A stretch of DNA of 64,000 nucleotides, taken from positions 57,598,001 to 57,662,000 of the forward strand of contig OX597833.1 of the NCBI GenBank assembly GCA_951406725.2. Reading direction: 5' to 3'. Each line of letters begins with the position of its first letter. Within the stretch, counting starts at the first letter, position 1. The stretch comes from Octopus vulgaris (lineage: Eukaryota). The notes beneath the pieces are model-generated. The model saw only the letters and a program-made list of their open reading frames with translations, ran no database searches and was not told where the DNA came from. Positions 9,871 through 58,985 of this stretch are shown one piece after another. The position numbers were made by a program, and so were the translations under genes.

Positions 9871-9928
<58 letters not shown>

Positions 9929-9931
<3 letters not shown>

Positions 9932-10295
9932 TGGTCGTATACTGTCACCTTAACGTGACAGTCCCGTAAAGGGAATTACACCACCGTTGTTTAGCCCTAG
10001 GAAGCATCGACGCTTCCTGTCGGCCTTGAAACGTATATATATATATTTACAAAGTCTAGACAGATATCTTCAGCTAGCAGGCCTTTGCTACTCTAGACTG
10101 ATGATGGGCAAAGACCCAGAAACATGCGTGTCTCTAGATGCAGGCCTAGCTGTTGGGGGTGTTTGTCTCCCCTTCGTAAATATATAAGGACACAGGAAAT
10201 GTGTCAAGAAGCGTCGATGATTCCTAGGGCTAAACAGCGGTGGTGTAATTCCCTTTACGGGACTGTCACGTTAAGTTGACAGTATACAACCACTT
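9929..10295. mobile_element. Foldback element with 91-bp inverted arms enclosing a hammerhead ribozyme
   Basis: 9929-10019 vs 10205-10295 are reverse complements with ~5 mismatches; follows (TA)n. Confidence 0.85.
10071..10152 (+). ncRNA. Canonical type I hammerhead ribozyme with extended, bulged helix I
   Basis: TCTAGA-CTGATGA-TGGG.CAAAGA.CCCA-GAAA-CA.TGCG.TG-TC-TCTAGA (10092-10138), GUC triplet; helix I extends via TGC/GCA, AGGCC/GGCCT and CAGCT/AGCTG. Confidence 0.85.
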
Positions 10296-14738: not shown

Positions 14739-15592
14739 ACTAACACTAACACTAACAGTAACACTAACCCTAACGCTAATCCTAACACTAAGCCTAACCC
14801 TAGCCCAAACCCTATACCTAACGTTAACCCTAACCCTAACACTAACCCTAACGCTAACCCTAGCCCTAACCCTAACCCAAACCCTAACCCTAACACTAAC
14901 CCTCACCCCAAACCTAACCCTAAACCTAACCCTAACTCCTAAATCCTAAACCTAACCATAACCCTCACCCTAACCCTAACCGTAACCTAACCCTAGCCCT
15001 AACCCAAACCTAACGCTAACCCTAACCCAAACCCTATCCCTAACCCTAACCCTCACCTTAACGCTAACCCTCACCCTAACCCTAATCGTAACCATTACCC
15101 TAACCCGTAACCGCTAACCCAAACCATAAAGCTAACACTAACCCTAACCCAAACCCTAACGCTACACCTAACCCTAACCCTAACCCTAACAACTAACTCC
15201 TACACCTAACCCTAACACTAATCCTAAACCTAACACTAACCCTAAACTTAACTCTAACCATCTAACAATAATCCTAACCCAAACAGTATCCCTAACCCTA
15301 ACCCTAACCCTAACCCTAACCCTAACCCTAACCCTAAAGCCTAACCCTAACCCAAACCCTAACCGTAACCCTAACCCTAACCCTAACACTAGCCCTAAAC
15401 CTAACCCACTAAACCTCACTCTAACCATAACCATAAACCTAAACCTAGCCCTAAACCTAACTCTAACCCTAACCCTAACCCTAATCCAAACCCTAACCCT
15501 AACCCTAACCCTAGCCCTAACCCTAAACCTAAACCTAACACTAAACCTAACCATAATCCTAAACTTAACGCTAACCTCTAAACCTAAACCTA
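14739..15592. repeat. Degenerate interstitial telomeric array (CCCTAA)n
   Basis: Runs of perfect CCCTAA (e.g. 15290-15335) among single-base variants (CACTAA, CGCTAA, CCCAAA, ACCTAA). Confidence 0.93.
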
Positions 15593-18500
15593 CAAACCAG
15601 CCGACCCACTGACCAACCAACCAACCAACCAGTCGATCCACGACCAACCGACCAACCAGCCAACAAGCAACCAACCGACAAACAAGCCAACCAGCTGAAC
15701 CAAGACCAACCGACAAACCAGCCAACAAGCAACCAACCGACAAACCAGCCAACCAGCTGAACCACGACAACCGACAAACTCGCAAACCAGCCGACCCACC
15801 AACAACCAACGAACCAGCCAACAAGTCGATCCACGACCAACCGACAAACCAGCCAACCAGCCGATATACGACCATCCGACAAACCAGCCAACAAGGCGAC
15901 CCACCGACCAACCGGCCAACAAGCAACCAACCGACAAACCAGCTGAACCACGACCAACCGACAAACTCGCAAACCAGCCGACCCACCACCAACCAACGAA
16001 CCAGCCGATCCACGACCAACCGACAAACCAGCCAACCAGCCGATTTACGACCATCCGACCAACCAGCCAACCAGGCGACCCACCGACCAACCAGCCAACC
16101 GGTAACCAACCGAGAAACCAGCCAACCAGCCGATTCATGACCAACCGACCAACCAGGCGATCCACCGACCAACCAGCAAACCGGTAACCAACCGACAAAC
16201 CAGCCAACCAGCCGATTCATGACCAACCAACCAACCAGCCAACTAGGCGACCCACCGACCAACCAGCCAAGCAGTAACTAACGGACAAACCAGCAACAAG
16301 CCGATCCATGATCATCCGACCAACCAGCGAACCAGGCGACCCACCGACCAACCAACCAACCAGTAACCAAAAGACAAACCAGCCAACTAGCCAATCCATG
16401 ATCAACCGACCAACCAGCCAACCAGTAACCAACAGACAAACCAGCCAACCAGCCGATCTACGACCATCCGACCAACCAGCCAACCATGCGACCCACCGAC
16501 AAACCAACCAACCAGCAACCAACCGACAAAGCAGCCAACCAGCTGATACATGACCAACCGACCAACCAGCCAACCAGGCGAGCCACCGACCAACCAACCA
16601 ACCAGCAACCAACTGACAGACCAGCCAACCAGCCGATCCATGAACAACCGACCAACCAGCCAACCAGGAAACCAACCGACAAACCAGCCAACCAGCCGAT
16701 ATACGATAATCCGACTATCCAGTCAACCAGGCGACCCACCGACCAACCAGCCAACCGGTAACCAACCGACAAACCAGCCAACAAGCCGATTCATGACCAA
16801 CCGACCAACCAGGCGATCCACCGACCAACCAGCAAACCGGTAACCAACCGACAAACCAGCCAACCAGCCGATTCATGATCAACCGACCAACCAGCCAATT
16901 AGGCGACCCACCGACAAACCAGCCAACCAGTAACCAACAGACAAACCAGCCAACTAGCCGATCCATGATCAACCGACCAACCACCCAACCAGTAACCAAC
17001 AGACAAACCAGCCAACCAGCCGATTCATGACCATCCGACAAACCAGCAAACAAGGCCACCCACCGACCAACCAGCAAACCAGTAACCAACAGACAAACCA
17101 GCCATGACTAACCGATCTACGACCATCCGATCAACCAGCTAACCAGGAGACCCACCGACCAACCAGCCAACCAGTAACCAACAGACAAACCAGCCAACCA
17201 GCCGATTCATGACCATCCGACAAACCAGCCAACCAACCAACCGACCAACCAGCCAACCAGCAACCAACTGACAAAGAAGCCAACCAGATGATTCATGACC
17301 ATCCGACAAACCAGCCAACCAGGCGACCCACCGACCAACCAGCCAACCAGTAACCAACAGACAAACCAGCCAACCAGCCGATTCATGACCATCCGACAAA
17401 CCAGCCAACCAGGCGACCAACCGACCAACCAGCCAACCAGTAACCAACAGACAAAACAGCCATGACTAACCGATCCACGACCAACCGACCAACCAGCCAA
17501 CCAGCAACCAACAGACAAACCAGCCAACCAGCCGATTAATGACCATCCGACCAACCAGCCAACCAGCAACCAACAGACAAACCAGCCAACCAGCCGATTA
17601 ATGACCATCCGACAAACCAGTCAACCAGTAACCAAAAGACAAACCAGCAAACCAGGCGACCAACCGACGAACCAGCAAAACAGCAACCAACAGACAAACC
17701 AGCCAACCAGCCGATTCATGACCATCCGACAAACCAGCCAACCAGGCGACCAACTGACTAACCAGCCAACCAGAAACCAACAGACAAACCAGCCAACCAG
17801 CCGTTTCATGACCATCTGACAAATCAGCCAACCAGGCGACCAACCGACCAACCAGCCAACCAGTAACCAACAGACAAACCAGACAACCAGGCGACCAACC
17901 GACCAACCAGCCAACAAGCAACCAACAGACAAACCAGCCAACCAGCCAATTCATGACCATCCGACAAACCAGCCAACCAGGCGACCAACCGACCAACCAG
18001 TCAACCAGAAACAAACAGACAAACCAGCCATGACTAACCGATCCGCGACCAACCGACACACCAGCCAACCAGCAACCAACAGACAAACCAGCCAACCAGC
18101 CGATTCATGACCATCCGACAAACCAGCCAACCAGGCGACCAACCGACCAACCAGCCAACCAGTAACCAACAGACAAACCAGCCAACCAGCCGATTCATGA
18201 CCATCCGACAAACCAGCCAACCAGTAACCAACAGACAAATCAGCCAACCAGCCGATTCATGACCATCCGACAAACCAGCCAACCAGGTGACCAACCGACC
18301 AACCAGCCAACCAGCAACCAACAGACAAACCAGCCAACCAGCCGATTCATGACCATCCGACAAACCAGCCAACCAGGCGACCCACCGACCAACCAGCCAA
18401 CCAGTAACCAACCAACAAACCAGCAAACCAGCCGATTCATGACCATCCGACAAACCAGCCAACCAGGCGACCAACTGACTAACCAGCCAACCAGAAACCA

Positions 18501-21500
18501 ACAGACAAACCAGCCAACCAGCAACCAACAGACAAACCAGCCAACCAGCCGACAAACCAGCCAACCAGGCGACCAACCGACCAAACAGCCAACCAGTAAC
18601 CAACAGACAAACCAGCCATGACTAACCGATCCACGACCAACCGACCAACCAGCCAACCAGCAACCAACAGACAAACCAGCCAACCAGCCGATTCATGACC
18701 ATCCGACAAACCAGCCAACCAGTAACAAAAAGACAAACCAGCCAACTAGTAACCAACAGACAAACCAGCCAACCAGCCGATTCATGACCATCCGACAAAC
18801 TAGCCAACCAAACGACCAACCGACCAACCAGCCAACCAGCAACCAACCGACAAACCAGCAACCAACCTATCCACGACCAACCGACAAACCAGCCAACCAG
18901 GTGACCAACCGACCAACCAGCCAGCCAGTAACCAACCGACAAACCAGCCAACCAGCCGATCCACGACCAACCGACCAACCAGCCAACCAGCAACCAACCG
19001 ACAAACCAGCCAACCAGCCGATTAATGACCATCCGACAAACCAGCCAACCAGTAACCAAAAGACTAACCGATCCACGACCAACCGACCAACCAGCCAACC
19101 AGCAACCAACAGACAAACCAGCCAACCAGCCGACAAACCAGCCAACCAGGCGACCAACCGACCAACCAGCCAACCAGTAACCAACAGACAAACCAGCCAT
19201 GACTAACCGATCCACGACCAACCGACCAACCAGCCAACCAGCAACCAACAGACAAACCAGCCAACCAGCCGATTCATGACCATCCGACAAACCAGCCAAC
19301 TAGTAACCAACCGACAAACCAGCCAACCAGCCGATTCATGACCATCCGACAAACCAGCCAACCAGTAACCAAAAGACAAACCAGCCAACCAGTAACCAAC
19401 AGACAAACCAGCCAACCAGCCGATTCATGACCATCCGACAAACCAGCCAACCAGGCACCCAACCGACCAACCAGCCAACCAGTAACCAACAGACAAACCA
19501 GCCAACCAGCCGATTCATGACCATCCGACAAACCAGCCAACCAGGCGACCAATCGACCAACCAGCCAAATAGTAACCAACAGACAAACCAGCCATGACTA
19601 ACCGATTCACGACCAGCCAACAAACCAGCCAACCAGCAACCAACAGACAAACCAGCCAACCAGCCGATTCATGACCACCGACCAACCAGCCAACCAGGCG
19701 ACCAACCGACCAACCAGCCAACCAGTAACCAACAGACAAACCAACCATGACTAACCGATCCACGACCAACCGACCAACCAGCCAACCAGCAACCAACATA
19801 CAAACCAGCCAACCAGCCGATTCATGACCATCCGACAAACCAGCCAACCAGTAACCAAAAGACAAACCAGCCAACCAGTAACCAACAGACAAACCAGCCA
19901 ACCAGCCGATTCATGACCATCCGACAAACCAGCCAACCAGGGGACCAACCGACCAACCAGCCAACCAGTAACCAACAGACAAACCAGCCATGACTAACCG
20001 ATCCACGACCAACCGACCAACCAGCCAACCAGCAAGCAACAGACAAACCAGCCAACCAGCCGATTCATGACCATCCGACAAACCAGCCAACCAGTAACCA
20101 ACAGACAAACCAGCCAACCAGCCGATTCATGACCATCCGACAAACCAGCCAACCAGTAACCAAAAGACAAACAAGCCAACCAGTAACCAACAGACAAACC
20201 AGCCAACCAATCAGCCAACCAGCAACCAACCAACAAACCAGTCATGAACAATCGATCCACTACCAACCGACAAACCAGCCAACCAGGTGACCCACAGCCA
20301 ACCAGCCAGCCAACCAGGCACCCATCCGACCAACCAGCCAACCAGTAACCAACAGACAAACCAGCCAACCAGCCGATAGATGACCATCCGACAAACCAGC
20401 CAACCAGGCGACCAATCTACCAACCAGCCAACCAGTAACCAACAGACAAACCAGCCATGACTAACCGATCCACGACCAGCCAACAAACCAGCCAACCAGC
20501 AACCAACAGACAAACCAGCCAACCAGCCGATTCATGACCATCCGACAAACCAGCCAACCAGTAACCAAAAGACAAACCAGTCAACCAGTAACCAACAGAC
20601 AAACCAGCCAACCAGCCGATTCATGACCATCCGACAAACCAGCCAACCAGGCGACCAACCGACCAACCAGCCAACCAGTAACCAACAGACAAACCAGCCA
20701 TGACTAACCGATCCACGACCAACCGACCAACCAGCCAACCACCAACCAACAGACAAACCAGCCAACCAGCTGATTCATGACCATCCGACAAACCAGCGAA
20801 CCAGGCGACCAACCGACCAACCAGCCAACCAGTAACCAACAGACAAACCAGCCATGACTAACCGATCCACGACCAGCCAACAAACCAGCCAACCAGCAAC
20901 CAACAGACAAACCAGCCAACCAGCCAATTCATGACCATCCGACAAACCAGTCAACCAGGCGACCAACCGACCAACCAGCCAACTAGTAACCAACAGACAA
21001 ACCAGCCAACCAGCCGATTCATGACCATCCGACAAACCAGCCAACCAGTAACCAACAGACAAACCAGCCAACCAGCCGATTCATGACCATCCGACAAACC
21101 AGCCAACCAGTAACCAACAGACAAACCAGCCAACCAGCCGATTCATGACCATCCGACAAACCAGCCAACTAGGCGACCCACCGACAAACCAGCCAACCAG
21201 TAACCAACAGACAAACCAGCCAACCAGCCGATTACGACCATCCGACAAACCAGCCAACCAGGCGACCAACCGATCAACCAGCCAACTAGTAACCAACAGA
21301 CAAACCAGCCAACCAGCCGATTATGACCATCCGACAAACCAGCCAACTAGGCGACCCACCGACCAACCAGCCAACCAGCAACCAACCAAACCAGCCACCA
21401 TCCGACAAACCAGCCAACCAGGCGACCCACCGACCAACCAGCCAACCAGTAACCAACCGACAAACCAGCCAACCAGCCGATTATGACCATCCGACAAACC

Positions 21501-24255
21501 AGCCAACCAGGCGAACCACCGACCAACCAGCCAACCAGTAACCAACCTGACAAACCAGCCAACCAGCCGATTATGACCATCCGACAAACCAGCCAACAAG
21601 GCGACCCACCGAACAACCAGCCAACCAGCAACCAACTGACAAACCAGCCAACCAGCCGATTCATGACCATCCGACAAACCAGCCAACCAGGCGACCCACC
21701 GACCAACCAGCCAACCAGCAACCAACCGATTAACCAGTCATGACCAACCGATCCACAACCATCCGACAAACCAGCCAACCAGGCGACCTACCGACCAACC
21801 AGCCAACCAGCAACCAACCGAGAAACCAGACATGACCAACCGATCCACAACCATCCGACAAACCAGCCAACCAGGCGACCCACCGACAAACCAGCCAACC
21901 AGCAACCAACCGACAAACCAGCCAACCAGCCGATTATGACCATCCGACAAACCAGCCAACCAACCGACCAACCGACCAACCAGCCAACCAGCAACCCACT
22001 GACAAATAAGACATGACCAACCGATCCACGACCATCCGACAAACCAGCCAACCAGGCGACCCACCGACCAACCAGCCAACCAGCAACCATCTGACAAACC
22101 AGCCAACCAGCCGATTATGACCATCCGACAAACCAGCCAACCAGGCGACCAACCGACCAACCAGCCAACCAGCAACCAACCAACAAACCAGACATGACCA
22201 ACCGATCCACGACCAACCGACAAACCAGCCAACCAGGCGACCCACCGACAAACCAGCCAACCAGCAACCAACTGACAAACCAGCCAACCAGCCGATTATG
22301 ACCATCCGACAAACCAGCCAACCAACCGACCAACCGACCAACCAGCCAACCAGGCAACCCAACCGACAAACCAGACATGACCAACCGATCCACGACCATC
22401 CGACAAACCAGCCAACCAGGCGACCCACCGACCAACCAGCCAACCAGCAACCATCTGACAAACCAGCCAACCAGCCGATTATGACCATCCGACAAACCAG
22501 CCAACCAGGCGACCAACCGACCAACCAGCCAACCAGCAACCCACTGACAAATCAGACATGACCAACCGATCCACGACCATCCGACAAACCAGCCAACCAG
22601 GCGACCCACCGACCAACCAGCCAACCAGCAACCAACTGACAAACCAGCCAACCAGCCGATTCATGACCATCCGACAAACCAGCCAACCAGGCGACCAACC
22701 GACCAACCAGCCAACCAGCAACCCACTGACAACCAACCGATCCACGACCATCCGACAAACCAGCCAACCAGGCGACCCACCGACCAACCAGCCAACCAGC
22801 AACCAACCGACAAACCAGCCAACCAGCCGATTATGACCATCCGACAAACCAGCCAACCAGGCGACCAACCGACCAACCAGCCAACCAGCAACCCAACTGA
22901 CAAATCAGACATGACCAACCGATCCACGACCATCCGACAAACCAGCCAACCAGGCGACCCACCGACCAACCAGCCAACTAGCAACCAACTGACAAACCAG
23001 CCAACCAGCCGATTATGACCATCCGACAAACCAGCCAACCAGGCGACCAACCGACCAACCAGCCAACCAGCAACCCACTGACAAATCAGACATGACCAAC
23101 CGATCCACGACCATCCGACAAACCAGCCAACCAGGCGACCCACCGACCAACCAGCCAACCAGCAACCAACTGACAAACCAGCCAACCAGCCGATTCATGA
23201 CCATCCGACAAACCAGCCAACCAGGCGACCAACCGACCAACCAGCCAACCAGCAACCCACTGACAAATCAGACAAGACCAACCGATCCACGACCATCCGA
23301 CAAACCAGCCAACCAGGTGACCCACCGACCAACCAGCCAACCAGTAACCAACCAACAAACCAGCCAACCAGCCGATCGACGACCACCCGACAAACCAGCC
23401 AACCAGGCGACCAACCGACCAACCAGCCAACCAGCAACCCACTGACAAATCAGACATGACCAACCGATCCACGACCATCCGACAAACCAGCCAACCAGGT
23501 GACCCACCGACCAACCAGCCAACCAGTAACCAACTGACAAACCAGCCAACCAGCCGATTATGACCATCCGACAAACCAGCCAACCAGGCGACCACCGACC
23601 AACCAGCCAACCAGCAACCAACTGACAAACCAGCCAACCAGCCGATCCACGACCATCCGACAAACCAGCCAACCAGGTGACCCACCGACCAACCAGCCAA
23701 CCAACTGACAAACCAGCCAACCAGCCGATTATGACCATCCGACAAACCAGCCAACCAGGCGACCCACCGACCAACCAGCCAACCAGCAACCAACTGACAA
23801 ACCAGCCAACCAGCCGATTATGACCATCCGACAAACCAGCCAACCAGGCGACCCACCGACCAACCAGCCAACCAGTAACCAACAGACAAACCAGCCAACC
23901 AGCCGATCCGATCTGTGACCAACAGACAAAGCAGCCAACCAGGTGACCCACCGACCAACCAGCCAACCAGCAACCCACTGAAAAACCAGCCAACCAGCCG
24001 ATCCACGACCAACCGACAAACCAGCCAACCAGGTGACCAACCGACCAACCAGCCAACCAGTAACCAACAGACAAACCAGCCAACCAGCCGTTTCATGACC
24101 ATCCGACAAACCAGCCAACCAGGTTACCCACCGACCAACCAGCCAACCAGCAATCAAATCAGACATGACCAACCGATCCACGACCATCCGACAAACCACC
24201 CAGCCAGCTGACCCACCGAATCGTCAACCTACCGACCAACCAGCCAACCAGCCAG
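15593..24255. repeat. ~8.7-kb C/A-rich satellite of 28-34-bp subunits in 62/90-bp higher-order units
   Basis: Core ACCAACCGACAAACCAGCCAACCAG; ATTCATGACC recurs at 90-bp (17291/17381) and 62-bp spacing; top strand strongly T-poor. Confidence 0.95.
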
Positions 24256-26340: not shown

Positions 26341-26449
26341 TTGATCATGAAATACTGCATATTTAGTTTATAAGGAATATTTGTTCTCCGGATAGTTATC
26401 CAACAAATACATACACGCACACACACACACATACATATCTATATTTTTC

Positions 26450-26539
<90 letters not shown>

Positions 26540-26605
26540 AGTCTCTCTGTCTGTCTGTCTATGTGTTCGTCCGTCCGTCAGTCTGTCTGTCTATTGGCCC
26601 GTTCG

Positions 26606-26695
<90 letters not shown>

Positions 26696-26696
<1 letters not shown>

Positions 26697-27894
26697 GGCT
26701 CTATGTAGACGACGGTGAACAGGTGTGGTCGCCGTTTGTGAGGCACGCTTTCCCGCAGCTCGTCTCCATGACCGAACTGCAGTCGTGGATCAAAAAGAGG
26801 CCGAGGAAGGGCGAATGGCACCGCGAGTGTCGCGTTGCTCTCAAGCAACTCTGCCGTCCTGGGTCGACCTTGAGTGACTTCAACACAACCAAAGCATTCT
26901 ATAGGGGTTTAGTGGAGGGGAGGTACGACGACGAGCTCGGGGCGAACCTGGACGTCGACGAGGAGTACCTGACCCGCCTGTTCAGGACGACTTTCGGGCC
27001 AGGGCCCATGGACAACTTCCAGAGATCCCTGGCCTGGCAGTGCTACCGAGAAGCGCTACCCGTTCGGGATAAGCTCTACAGACACGGCTCGAGAAACACG
27101 GGGCCGACCTGCCCGAGATGCGGTCAGAGCGACGAAACCGTTCTGCACGCACTCGTGCAGTGTCCAACAATTTCCGACCTGTGGGCTTATGTCGAACAAC
27201 TGCTGTCACGTGTGGGACGAGTCGGTTTATCAGCTGAGTCTATCGTCAATATTGTCACGCCTCCTTCCTTCAAACGGGAAGGAAGAGCTATTTTCATCAT
27301 CCTTGTGGCTATGGCGAAAGAATGTATCTGGTGGACGCGTCTGAAAGGATTGGAGACAAACACTTTCCTCTCTGGTCAATCTCTCATCAACTTCTTCAAG
27401 TACCACTTTAAAAGGAAAGTGAGAGTAGAGAGGCAAGTTTTGTCTAGCGAATGTTTTAAAAAAAGATGGGTGAATGTAGCAAGAATGGCACGTATGAATG
27501 ACGAAGCCACCTTGAGCATGATCCTATGAACCCAGAAATTGAAAACAGAGAGTTGCTTATTCGCAAAAAAAAAAAAAAAAAAGAAAATATAACATGTGAC
27601 GACTCCATTGACCGAGGTTACCGTGGTCTTTTCCGTAGGCTTTTCTTTCCACGGGTAAACCTCACCTGTCCTCCCCTTTACACTTCATATTGACATTTCT
27701 GTGATAACGATCCCTATTGATCAATTTTTTTTTCCTCTCCCCCTTTTTTTTTTAACCCCCTTTTTTTGTCCTCTTTCTCTCCTTTTACGATCCCTTTTGA
27801 TCGAAACTCCCCCTTCCTTTTTTTTTTTTTTTAAACCTTCAAAAGAAAAGCTCTACCTTGTAATTTGTTCTATCTGTGTGGCTAATAAAGAAAC
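26696..27894 (+). mobile_element. 5'-truncated L1/Tx1-clade LINE (zf-RVT C-terminus plus 3' UTR)
   Basis: Open frame to 27529 with AWQCYREALPVRDKL...CPRCGQSDETVLHALVQC (CCHC); T-rich UTR; AATAAA at 27884; (TATC)n on both flanks. Confidence 0.88.
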
Positions 27895-36711: not shown

Positions 36712-36908
36712 CTCTATATATAAAACTGAAATGCGTTTTTACCGCTTGGTTCGCTTTCAATGCCACTACATCCCGTCCGATTCGCTCCAAAATTTACAGG
36801 GACATGTAGAATGAGGTGACGATGCGCGTGGGCTACCTTACAAATCCCTATCTTAAAAGGTGTGGTTGCTAGGGGCCATCTTCCTACCTCACCCTATTTC
36901 CTCCAGTA
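36268..36908 (+). mobile_element. Two direct copies of a Helitron-like 5' end (36268-36451, 36711-36908)
   Basis: Both begin TCTCTATATATAAAACTGAAATGCG after an A; the second has a short extra segment and runs into the gap. Confidence 0.55.
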
Positions 36909-37008
36909 NNNNNNNNNNNNNNNNNNNNNNNNNNNNNNNNNNNNNNNNNNNNNNNNNNNNNNNNNNNNNNNNNNNNNNNNNNNNNNNNNNNNNNNNNNNN
37001 NNNNNNNN
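36909..37008. other. Assembly gap (100 N)
   Basis: Direct reading. Confidence 1.
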
Positions 37009-37318
37009 TATGTGTATGAGTGTACGAATGAGAGTGTGTGTGCGTGCTAATGAGTGTGCGTGCGTGAATGAGTGCTTGTGCTCAAGTAGAAAGATAAAAG
37101 GGACTAGCCAAGATGTTTGTGACCAGCGGTCAAAGATAACAAAAGTAATAAATGAAGATAATAAAATTAAAATTAGGGAATGGGTTTGTAATTGTATGTA
37201 TATATGTGTGTATGTGTAGGTATGAATAGGTACACATATGTATGTATGTATGTGTATATATATGTATGTGTGTGTGTGTGTATACATACATATATGTGTA
37301 TGGATGGGTACACATATG

Positions 37319-37385
<67 letters not shown>

Positions 37386-37595
37386 ATACATACATATATG
37401 TGTATATGTATATATGAGTATATAGGGACTTGTGTGTTGTGTGTGCATGTGTGTATGTGGATATGTGTGTGTATGTGAGTATGTGTATGTGTGTGTATGT
37501 ATATATTTTTTTGTGTGTATGTGTATGTGTGGTCGTGTGTGTGTGTATATATACATGTGTGTGTATATGTATATGCATGTATGTGTGTATGTATG

Positions 37596-37632
<37 letters not shown>

Positions 37633-37935
37633 GTAGATATATGTATATGTGTGTGTGTGTATGTATGGGTGTGTGTGTGTATGTATGTGTGTATGTATAT
37701 GTGTGTGTGTTGAGAATTTCCTTATTTACCTAAAACTCTATTCTTCTATATAATTTTATATTTTTTTATTCTTTTTTTATTCTTTTATTTATTCTTCTAT
37801 CTAATTTACCACTGACTCCTTGACCACTCCCCCAAGTACGATTTTTTTGCGCTATGCCTACCCCCAAAAAGTCCCCCACCACCACCCCTATAAACCTGCC
37901 TAAATGTATAAATGCCAATACAATTCTTGTTAACT

Positions 37936-41521: not shown

Positions 41522-41682
41522 GGGCTTCTTTCAGTTTCCGTCTACCAAATCCACTCACAAGGCTTTGGTCGGCCCAAGGCTAAAGTAGAAGACACTTGCC
41601 CAAGGTGCCACGCAGTGGGATTGAACTCGGAACCATGTGGTTGGTAAGCAAGCTACTTACCACACAACCACTCCTACGCCTA
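41225..41682 (-). mobile_element. SINE A
   Basis: Family A head and tail. Confidence 0.9.
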
Positions 41683-41734
41683 TTATACATAATATACTTA
41701 TACATGTTCATACACACACATACACACATAAGTA

Positions 41735-42560
41735 CATAGATGATTTGTTGGCTGATAAAAGACGTACTTTGTCACGCTATTTGTCAGCAAAGCCACAAGA
41801 AAGGGAAATGCTGCATGGGGAACTCAAGGACGTAAAATCACGTGTGAGGCAAAGGCTCTCTCAGACGAGGGATACATGGTGGAGTAAGAAGGCTGACGAG
41901 ATACAGGCGGCATCAGATTCCAATAACACAAAGCTGTTGTATGCTCTCTTGCGAGAAGTTTATGGACCGACGTCTTCCCTGATGACACCACTTCGAAGCA
42001 GGGATGGTAAAGAACTTCTTCGTGATTCACAAGGAATTCTGCGAAGGTGGCAAGAACACTTTGATGAACTTTTGAATCAGCAGTCTGTAGTTAGTGAGGA
42101 TGTTCTCAATCTCATCCCTGAATTGCCTGTGAAGGCAGCATTCGCAGAACCACCAAAGTTTGAAGAAGTTGCAATGGCTGTCTCAAGGTTGAATAATGGG
42201 AAATCTCCGGGTATGGATGGCATACATGCGGAGTTGTTACAGCATGGTGGTGAGAAAATTCTGCAGAAACTTCACACTTTATTTGGTAAGGTATGGATTA
42301 GTGAATCTGTACCTGAGGACTGGAGAGATGCAGTAATGGTGGTCCTATATAAGGGTAAGGGCAACAGGAATGATTGTGGTAATTGTAGGGGAGTATCATT
42401 GCTGTCTGCTGTAGGAAAGGTTTTATGCAGGATACTTCTGGATCGTCTGCTGAAATACATTGCAGACTGTGTTTTTCCAGAAAGTCAATCTGGCTTTCGT
42501 GTGGGACGTGGCACTGCTTATATAATCTTTTTTCAGCTAGACAGCTTCAGGAAAAGTGAG
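41735..42560 (+). mobile_element. RTE-clade LINE internal fragment (linker plus N-terminal reverse transcriptase)
   Basis: RWQEHFDELLN, GKSPGMDGIHAELL, VPEDWRDA..VVLYKGKG..DCGNCRGVSLLSAVGKVL, PESQSGFRVGRGT; breaks near 42530-42560. Confidence 0.93.
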
Positions 42561-42708
42561 CCTGGATGCGCATTCATCCCTCCGTCGATGCTCTCGGTGT
42601 CGGGGTTGACCTGCTTTCTCTTCTGCGGGTCTTACGAATAGCAAAGGACCACGTTTCGGACTTCTCCCACTACACTGGGACGAAGACCGCTTCGCTCACC
42701 AGCAACAG

Positions 42709-58912: not shown

Positions 58913-58985
58913 GCTGAAATAGCTCAGTTGGGAGAGCGTTAGATTGAAGGTCTGAAGGTCCCTGGTTCAATCCCAGGTTTCGACA
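58913..58985 (+). tRNA. tRNA-Phe(GAA) variant, probably a pseudogene
   Basis: 73 nt GCTGAAATAGCTCAGTTGGGAGAGCGTTAGATTGAAGGTCTGAAGGTCCCTGGTTCAATCCCAGGTTTCGACA; intact A/B boxes; C2.A71 mismatch; T-run terminator at ~59007. Confidence 0.85.

Follow-up and report, generated by a model that had tools for sequence, protein, structure and literature searches.

The locus considered here raises the question of what kind of mobile element sets a complete hammerhead ribozyme motif between two long inverted arms. The window, meaning the whole 64,000-nt stretch of Octopus vulgaris DNA that was analysed (contig OX597833.1, positions 57,598,001 to 57,662,000), had been annotated from its letters in an earlier note, which took the element for an undescribed MITE/retrozyme hybrid and named a Penelope pseudo-LTR-type unit with an inverted 5' duplication as the fallback. 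The reading reached here, which we hold with high confidence, is that a 364-nt retrozyme, abundant and non-coding, is present at this locus as a 5'-truncated copy, that the left arm is the inverted 3' end of that same repeat, and that both likely arose in a single insertion event through a Penelope-like reverse transcriptase (RT)/endonuclease acting in trans. The parts of the insertion are as follows.

9884..9929, no strand: (TA)n run at the insertion site, inside a longer TA/CA microsatellite
9930..10294, forward strand: whole insertion, an inverted arm plus a 5'-truncated unit of the 364-nt hammerhead repeat
9930..10029, reverse strand: inverted arm, the reverse complement of the final 100 nt of the unit (unit positions ~266-364)
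10030..10033, no strand: inversion junction, four bases with a clean match to neither side
10034..10294, forward strand: forward copy (unit positions 97-364), with 92% identity to the reference copy at L021:1405-1768
10066..10080, forward strand: empty LINE target site, unit position 129 onward, a ~15-bp stretch that is duplicated in occupied copies
10204..10294, forward strand: terminal stretch (3') of the forward copy, paired with the left arm and stopping at the fixed end of the family, unit position 364

The arms are as nearly perfect as first described, with 86 of 91 bases matching between 9929-10019 and 10205-10295. The dimensions given for them, a 367-bp element with 91-bp arms, needed correction: the element is 365 bp long (9930-10294), the outermost A/T pair belonging to the flank, and the real inverted arm of 100 bp seems to be 91 bp because 9 bp were deleted near 10208 in the right-hand copy. 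The two arms differ solely by unpaired changes, and host DNA on either side lies outside the inversion. Neither end of the insertion (9930, 10294) bears a tail, no flanking direct repeat of 2-14 bases was found as a target-site duplication, and the right flank is AT-rich. At the junction, a 3-nt overlap (TGA) with the upstream sequence of the unit was seen by eye; unit positions 59-96, the site of a promoter-like motif discussed below, are missing from the forward copy. No open reading frame (ORF) of at least 200 aa was found over the element. The 367-nt strand folds at -226.3 kcal/mol (z -22), a value equalled by 0 of 100 shuffles. The rod-like RNA envisaged for it would be a trait of this single insertion only.

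The window holds one copy of the 364-nt repeat; three further CTGATGA..GAAA matches within it are not copies of this family. Elsewhere in the window, a (CTAACC)n array (14740-15592) passes into an 8.4-kb satellite with a 90-bp period and a strong strand skew (14740-24219 together), a tRNA match was obtained in Rfam at 58913-58985 on the forward strand (55.7 bits; anticodon GAA by eye), and stop-to-stop frames of 377, 338 and 278 aa lie at 26396-27529 (+), 41625-42641 (+) and 36889-37725 (-), outside high-scoring tandem arrays.

The ribozyme motif lies in the loop between the arms, with every element at the positions first reported for a canonical CUGAUGA/GAAA/GUC hammerhead.

~10062..10164, forward strand: extended, bulged helix I around the ribozyme, predicted
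10092..10138, forward strand: hammerhead motif of type I; canonical core, cleavage predicted between 10132 and 10133
10092-10097 with 10133-10138, forward strand: helix I, TCTAGA, 6 bp
10098-10104, forward strand: core CTGATGA, from sequence
10105-10118, forward strand: helix II, 4 bp, loop CAAAGA
10119-10122, forward strand: GAAA, from sequence
10130-10132, forward strand: GTC, from sequence

When the motif is set against the definition of the core (C3-U-G-A-N-G8-A, GAAA and NUH with three helices), all core bases are present and helix III is short, comprising three pairs (A15.1-U16.1 included) capped by a 4-nt loop, with a predicted pairing probability of 0.01. Three Rfam scans returned no hammerhead family at the gathering score or at E values up to 10. 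The active fold is less stable than the minimum by 2 kcal/mol, a gap that is the same in four contexts of 82 to 367 nt; therefore the arms neither aid nor impede folding of the ribozyme. An extension of helix I by further bulged helices over 10071-10152 had been proposed; an extended, bulged helix is indeed predicted, but it reaches from ~10062 to 10164, and 10071-10152 by itself folds at the level of shuffles (z -1.1). Because the Rfam, helix III and isolated-fold results are weak, the motif is called a putative hammerhead on two grounds, the completeness of its core and the covariation seen between related families; a cut after 10132, as predicted, is consistent with both.

Covariation was assessed in 17 hand-picked representatives of this and related families, whose sequences are akin, of which 16 could be parsed. 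The 3-8 pair is C-G in seven of these, U-A in eight and U-G in one, and two-sided changes occur in helices I and II among the 16 parsed of 17. The helix III segment is fully self-complementary in 14 of the parsed representatives. Palindromic segments of this kind permit dimeric hammerheads, as set out in the available text of PMC4209133; eight of nine retrozyme dimers tested in the accessible part of bioRxiv 10.64898/2026.07.22.740005 gave no cleavage, and the window copy has no neighbouring ribozyme.

The family to which this copy belongs is large. Searched for the repeat, the genome (2.8 Gb) yielded 3,220 first-look candidates, and 40 of these were scored; the family samples used throughout are top-scoring matches rather than random draws. 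The unit length of 364 nt was taken from partial tandems, with L021:1405-1768 as reference, and the unit is internally self-complementary. Non-LTR retrozymes are recognised by a type I hammerhead in a non-coding unit 150-450 bp long, and the 364-nt unit has each of these properties. Among 100 distinct sampled cores, CCGATGA was found in 55 and CTGATGA in 36, and 86 are otherwise intact; 55 thus have U4C, a change that lowers in vitro activity according to the available text of PMC3088659, and the window copy has the canonical U4. Decay of CpG was considered as the origin of the canonical core and set aside; CCA cores number 2 in 100 against 36 CTG cores, on which ground CTG looks like a true subfamily. 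The repeat was also present in contigs from runs carrying three other organism codes, and none of the runs listed with it is recorded as RNA. Read depth over the repeat was 3'-heavy in four RNA-like runs and in four runs of unrecorded kind (three of them large), and the profile was alike in RNA-like and DNA-like runs; 3'-heavy depth was rejected as a sign of transcription or cleavage, the four runs of unrecorded kind having the same profile. Further hammerhead repeat families were seen at L105, L106, L113, L116, L117, L122, L123, L124, L130, L089 and L233, most of them with a U3-A8 variant of the core, and L233 aligns to the 364-nt unit at 61% over ~280 bases, tail included.

Whether the inverted arms are a property of the family was addressed by a search with the loop by itself, the comparison that the earlier note had proposed. 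This gave 30 loci (29 distinct), and an inverted arm adjoins the loop in eight of the 29, the window included, and is absent from the other 21; the architecture thus varies among copies. In a set of 90 loci, 35 inverted pairs span 131-650 bp (three loci yield two pairs each). Over all loci there are 34 distinct junction signatures, with the inner end of the short arm anywhere from unit position 13 to 332. Truncation at the 5' end is likewise variable, whereas the 3' end is fixed at two places, unit position 364 and ~58 nt beyond it. Among 147 distinct ends at position 364, 68 stop there, 61 run on into a tail (41 of these finishing at tail position 57-60) and 18 continue in tandem, mostly in part and with no long array among those sampled; the window copy is single. 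The 20 bases past tail-less ends are 80% AT and often (TA)n. Snap-back at the basal stem of the ribozyme was rejected as a general cause of inversion given the 131-650 bp spanned at other loci; several look-alike loci of 374-376 bp, selected by colinearity with the query, are in register with that stem. At L034:1618-1952, a 335-bp LINE-like 3' fragment of another family occupies the same site in the repeat that is used by the LINE described below, here without a duplication.

These results bear directly on the idea of a MITE-like DNA element, one with fixed terminal inverted repeats and a captured hammerhead that is moved by a transposase. MITEs and Foldback DNA transposons are short and non-coding and have long inverted arms. 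The present locus resembles them in all of this, its near-perfect 91-100 bp arms and strong fold being what such an element would have, and eleven other loci of 361-376 bp look similar; those eleven, however, were chosen for being colinear with the query, and such of their junctions as were parsed differ. A MITE would be expected to have, in the majority of its copies, terminal inverted repeats of one set length, together with a constant target-site duplication. Here the arms vary in length and do not characterise the family, no duplication accompanies the window copy, flanks vary in the bases that follow the fixed end, and in some copies the tail is placed outside the arm on either or both sides. 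The hybrid with terminal inverted repeats is accordingly abandoned and a MITE-like origin largely refuted; we judge it extremely unlikely. The fallback suggested in the earlier note matches the ends, tails and inversions seen, and the locus likely adds a new member to a known class and is not a hybrid element of a new kind.

The inversions themselves point to an origin at insertion. Rare variants common to both arms of a pair numbered 31, compared with 4.1 on average and at most 19 in 500 random pairings, a sign that a single template served each inversion event. An inversion arising afterwards, by fold-back at the DNA level or by a second copy landing head-to-head, would be uninformative on the mover. 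It could be promoted by the self-complementarity of the unit, and the window's own two arms have no rare variant in common; yet about a quarter of the sampled copies are inverted, nearly always from the same fixed end, arms have rare variants in common across loci, and the host DNA flanking the window copy is not inverted. Inversion after insertion is on these grounds very unlikely, and the inversion in the window was likely a one-off event at the time of insertion.

A Penelope-like element (PLE) is the candidate mover. In the available text of PMC8557442, PLE insertions are described as truncated at the 5' end, partly repeated in tandem, framed by an inverted 5' copy and biased towards microsatellites, with a tail of 30-40 bp at either end. 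The available text of PMC11167929 describes a PLE protein that cuts both strands of AT-rich DNA and begins reverse transcription from two internal sites bounding the tail, which would explain the tail found here. Copies of the 364-nt repeat have the same footprints (truncated 5' ends, partial tandems, inverted 5' copies that vary in length, an optional tail, and AT-rich or microsatellite targets) and thereby resemble PLE insertions and their non-autonomous derivatives as described in the same portions of PMC8557442 and PMC11167929. They differ in having no ORF, in a tail of ~58 nt as against the 30-40 bp given in PMC8557442, and in a hammerhead with canonical helix sizes rather than the minimal PLE form described in the available text of PMC4209133.

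The genome offers many possible partners, with 9,649 first-look candidates for PLE RTs and 6,136 for GIY-YIG domains, and several intact PLE frames of 778-906 aa carry both domains. Among 70 PLE loci examined, of thousands of candidates, none has a terminus shared with the 364-nt unit, the sole link being three neighbouring retrozyme copies, and the ends of intact PLE frames scored against the unit at the level of shuffles. Since no autonomous PLE with the sequence of the unit occurs among those 70 loci, a Penelope-type mover is inferred from its footprints alone. A PLE adjoining L069 was rejected as the autonomous partner, since it inserted separately and has inverted ends of its own. Among young PLE families, those with intact frames include L245 (G000:C1:119514500-119524400), L246, L248 and L250, and one young family occurs in head-to-tail copies 3.6 kb apart. 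Six PLE GIY-YIG loci (L222, L224, L225, L228, L233 and L239) have hammerheads of their own, with a U3-A8 core, a long helix II and a 4-base helix III segment identical to that of one retrozyme family.

Animal retrozymes are hammerhead repeats 170-400 nt long whose mobilisation by PLEs has been proposed, in the available text of PMC7229834 and bioRxiv 10.64898/2026.07.22.740005. The present family resembles the metazoan non-LTR retrozymes described in those texts in its non-coding unit of 150-450 bp, type I hammerhead and high copy number, in the occurrence of monomers and partial tandems, in its self-paired unit and in the co-occurrence of PLEs. In contrast to them, copies here are mostly dispersed and truncated, with inversions and tails, insertion marks that the same texts do not describe for retrozymes; U4C is also found in the majority of sampled cores.

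A second element is tightly linked to the repeat. In eight fetched regions the repeat is interrupted by an insert between unit positions ~147 and 129, which is a 5.4-kb two-ORF element in two regions and a 1.6-kb ORF1-only element in six (one of these six being the other side of a two-ORF locus).

L066:2817-8205 and L068:2743-8191, reverse strand: two-ORF LINE, 5.4 kb, at unit position 129; searched loci L071-L100
L061:986-2643: ORF1-only derivative, 1.6 kb, at the same site; searched loci L101-L130

ORF2 of the longer element has the Pfam domains Exo_endo_phos (APE), RVT_1 and zf-RVT, marks common to the wider L1 group, and ORF1 has a zinc knuckle by eye. The closest named homologues of its proteins are from argonaut and cuttlefish, no clade-named reference being among the homologues. 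The LINE is of the L1/Tx1 group. The ORF1-only derivative is stacked in tandem at L067, L120 and L123 and occurs at the matching place in diverged hammerhead families. A search with the 3' ends of the two-ORF and ORF1-only elements gave 60 loci; after removal of 7 seeds and 3 with duplicated flanks, 50 remained, three of them classed by eye. Hammerhead repeats are the target in 32 of the 50, with 22 at position 129 of the 364-nt repeat or its close variants and 10 at the equivalent place in other hammerhead families, and the remaining 18 lie elsewhere. From the LINE end to the hammerhead core is 28-36 nt, bar one deletion copy and one with a second LINE. Target duplications of ~11-16 bp agree within a locus and differ between loci, which together with the stacking of LINEs at one site shows repeated independent insertion; in off-target copies the duplications often have ATC at or near their start. 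The upstream half of the repeat is missing from some 5'-truncated LINEs, and these finish at position 364, suggesting that the LINE-repeat composite, too, moved as one unit.

So close a linkage could mean that the repeat is copied by the machinery of this LINE and that the inversion is an L1-type twin-priming product. In twin priming, the arms do not both start from the same end; here both do. The LINE's own insertions mostly have ~15-bp duplications and the window copy has none, the repeat ends without poly(A) and at two internal points, and the repeat serves the LINE as its landing site. We therefore consider LINE-driven copying extremely improbable and retain Penelope-type insertion as the preferred reading.

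According to the available text of PMC4494074, known Tx1 targets comprise other transposons, snRNA and rRNA genes, microsatellites and unnamed satellites. The associated LINE is like the Tx1-clade elements treated there (Tx1L in Tx1D, Keno in U2 genes, Tx1-Mar) in its two ORFs with APE and RT domains, ~15-bp duplications, tandem stacks and multicopy target. It differs from them in that its target lies 28-36 nt before a hammerhead core in several diverged families, and a hammerhead repeat is absent from the Tx1 targets named in that text, 'Sat' targets in a figure aside. The literature listings and cited papers on hammerhead repeats, retrozymes and Tx1 targets (Repbase, Dfam and subscription journals being outside their scope) showed no description of the 364-nt family or of the target of this LINE. 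Apparently, the LINE also targets the first base of a U2 gene.

What the target sites have in common lies upstream of them. A 6-base motif occurs 57-61 nt upstream of 11 of 12 U2 genes and 55-60 nt upstream of 14 of 15 retrozyme target sites, the motif having been chosen after these sequences were viewed and the retrozyme sites being mutually related. At that distance it was found upstream of one of seven non-hammerhead LINE targets and at 47 of 5,000 random positions. A U6-type promoter was rejected, the motif being upstream of 0 of 12 U6 loci. In the twelfth U2 gene, a LINE-like 3' end lies directly before the first base and replaces the promoter (L178 ~1410-1500; by eye). These counts are support, not proof, for a U2-like promoter motif ~60 nt upstream of unit position 129 in full copies, and unit position 129 (window 10066) is likely the transcription start in such copies. 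An snRNA-type promoter is also a feature of newt satellite 2.

A life cycle can be proposed on this basis. Full copies would be transcribed from the U2-like promoter (motif near -60, start at unit position 129), and in read-through RNA from tandems the hammerhead would release pieces one unit long, which might then be circularised. A Penelope-type protein would then cut AT-rich DNA, with reverse transcription starting from position 364 or from the end of the tail. The RNA template would be uncut or re-joined, because most copies cross the cut site and some exceed a full unit, and the short inverted arm would come from a second priming event or a strand switch. Promoter use, cleavage, the circular or uncut template and PLE catalysis are all steps that we infer. 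The window copy, having no promoter-like motif upstream, would probably be transcribed by read-through only. The loss of that motif, together with arms whose sole differences are unpaired changes, makes it most likely that this insertion is a dead end.

A wider proposal, to which we give about an even chance, is a three-tier system of parasites. A retrozyme with its own snRNA-type promoter would borrow a Penelope enzyme for insertion. A Tx1-like LINE and its ORF1-only derivative would both insert at the first base transcribed from that promoter, in U2 genes as well as in several diverged hammerhead families, and factors bound to the promoter, not the target sequence, would guide them there. 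The ribozyme just downstream would be left intact, and the LINE would sometimes be carried by the Penelope machinery. Window position 10066 would be one such site, unoccupied.

Viewed against its family, the locus is ordinary, and the family is of modest importance. Through its fixed ends, tails and inversions the family supplies direct genomic footprints for a link between animal retrozymes and PLEs that was proposed long ago and that, in the available text of PMC7229834 and bioRxiv 10.64898/2026.07.22.740005, is argued from co-occurrence and sequence kinship. It also gives exact predicted start points for reverse transcription, at unit position 364 and ~58 nt further. Repeat pipelines can miscall such copies as MITEs. 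If the LINE reads promoter position rather than sequence, it would offer a testable case of factor-guided integration in an animal LINE.
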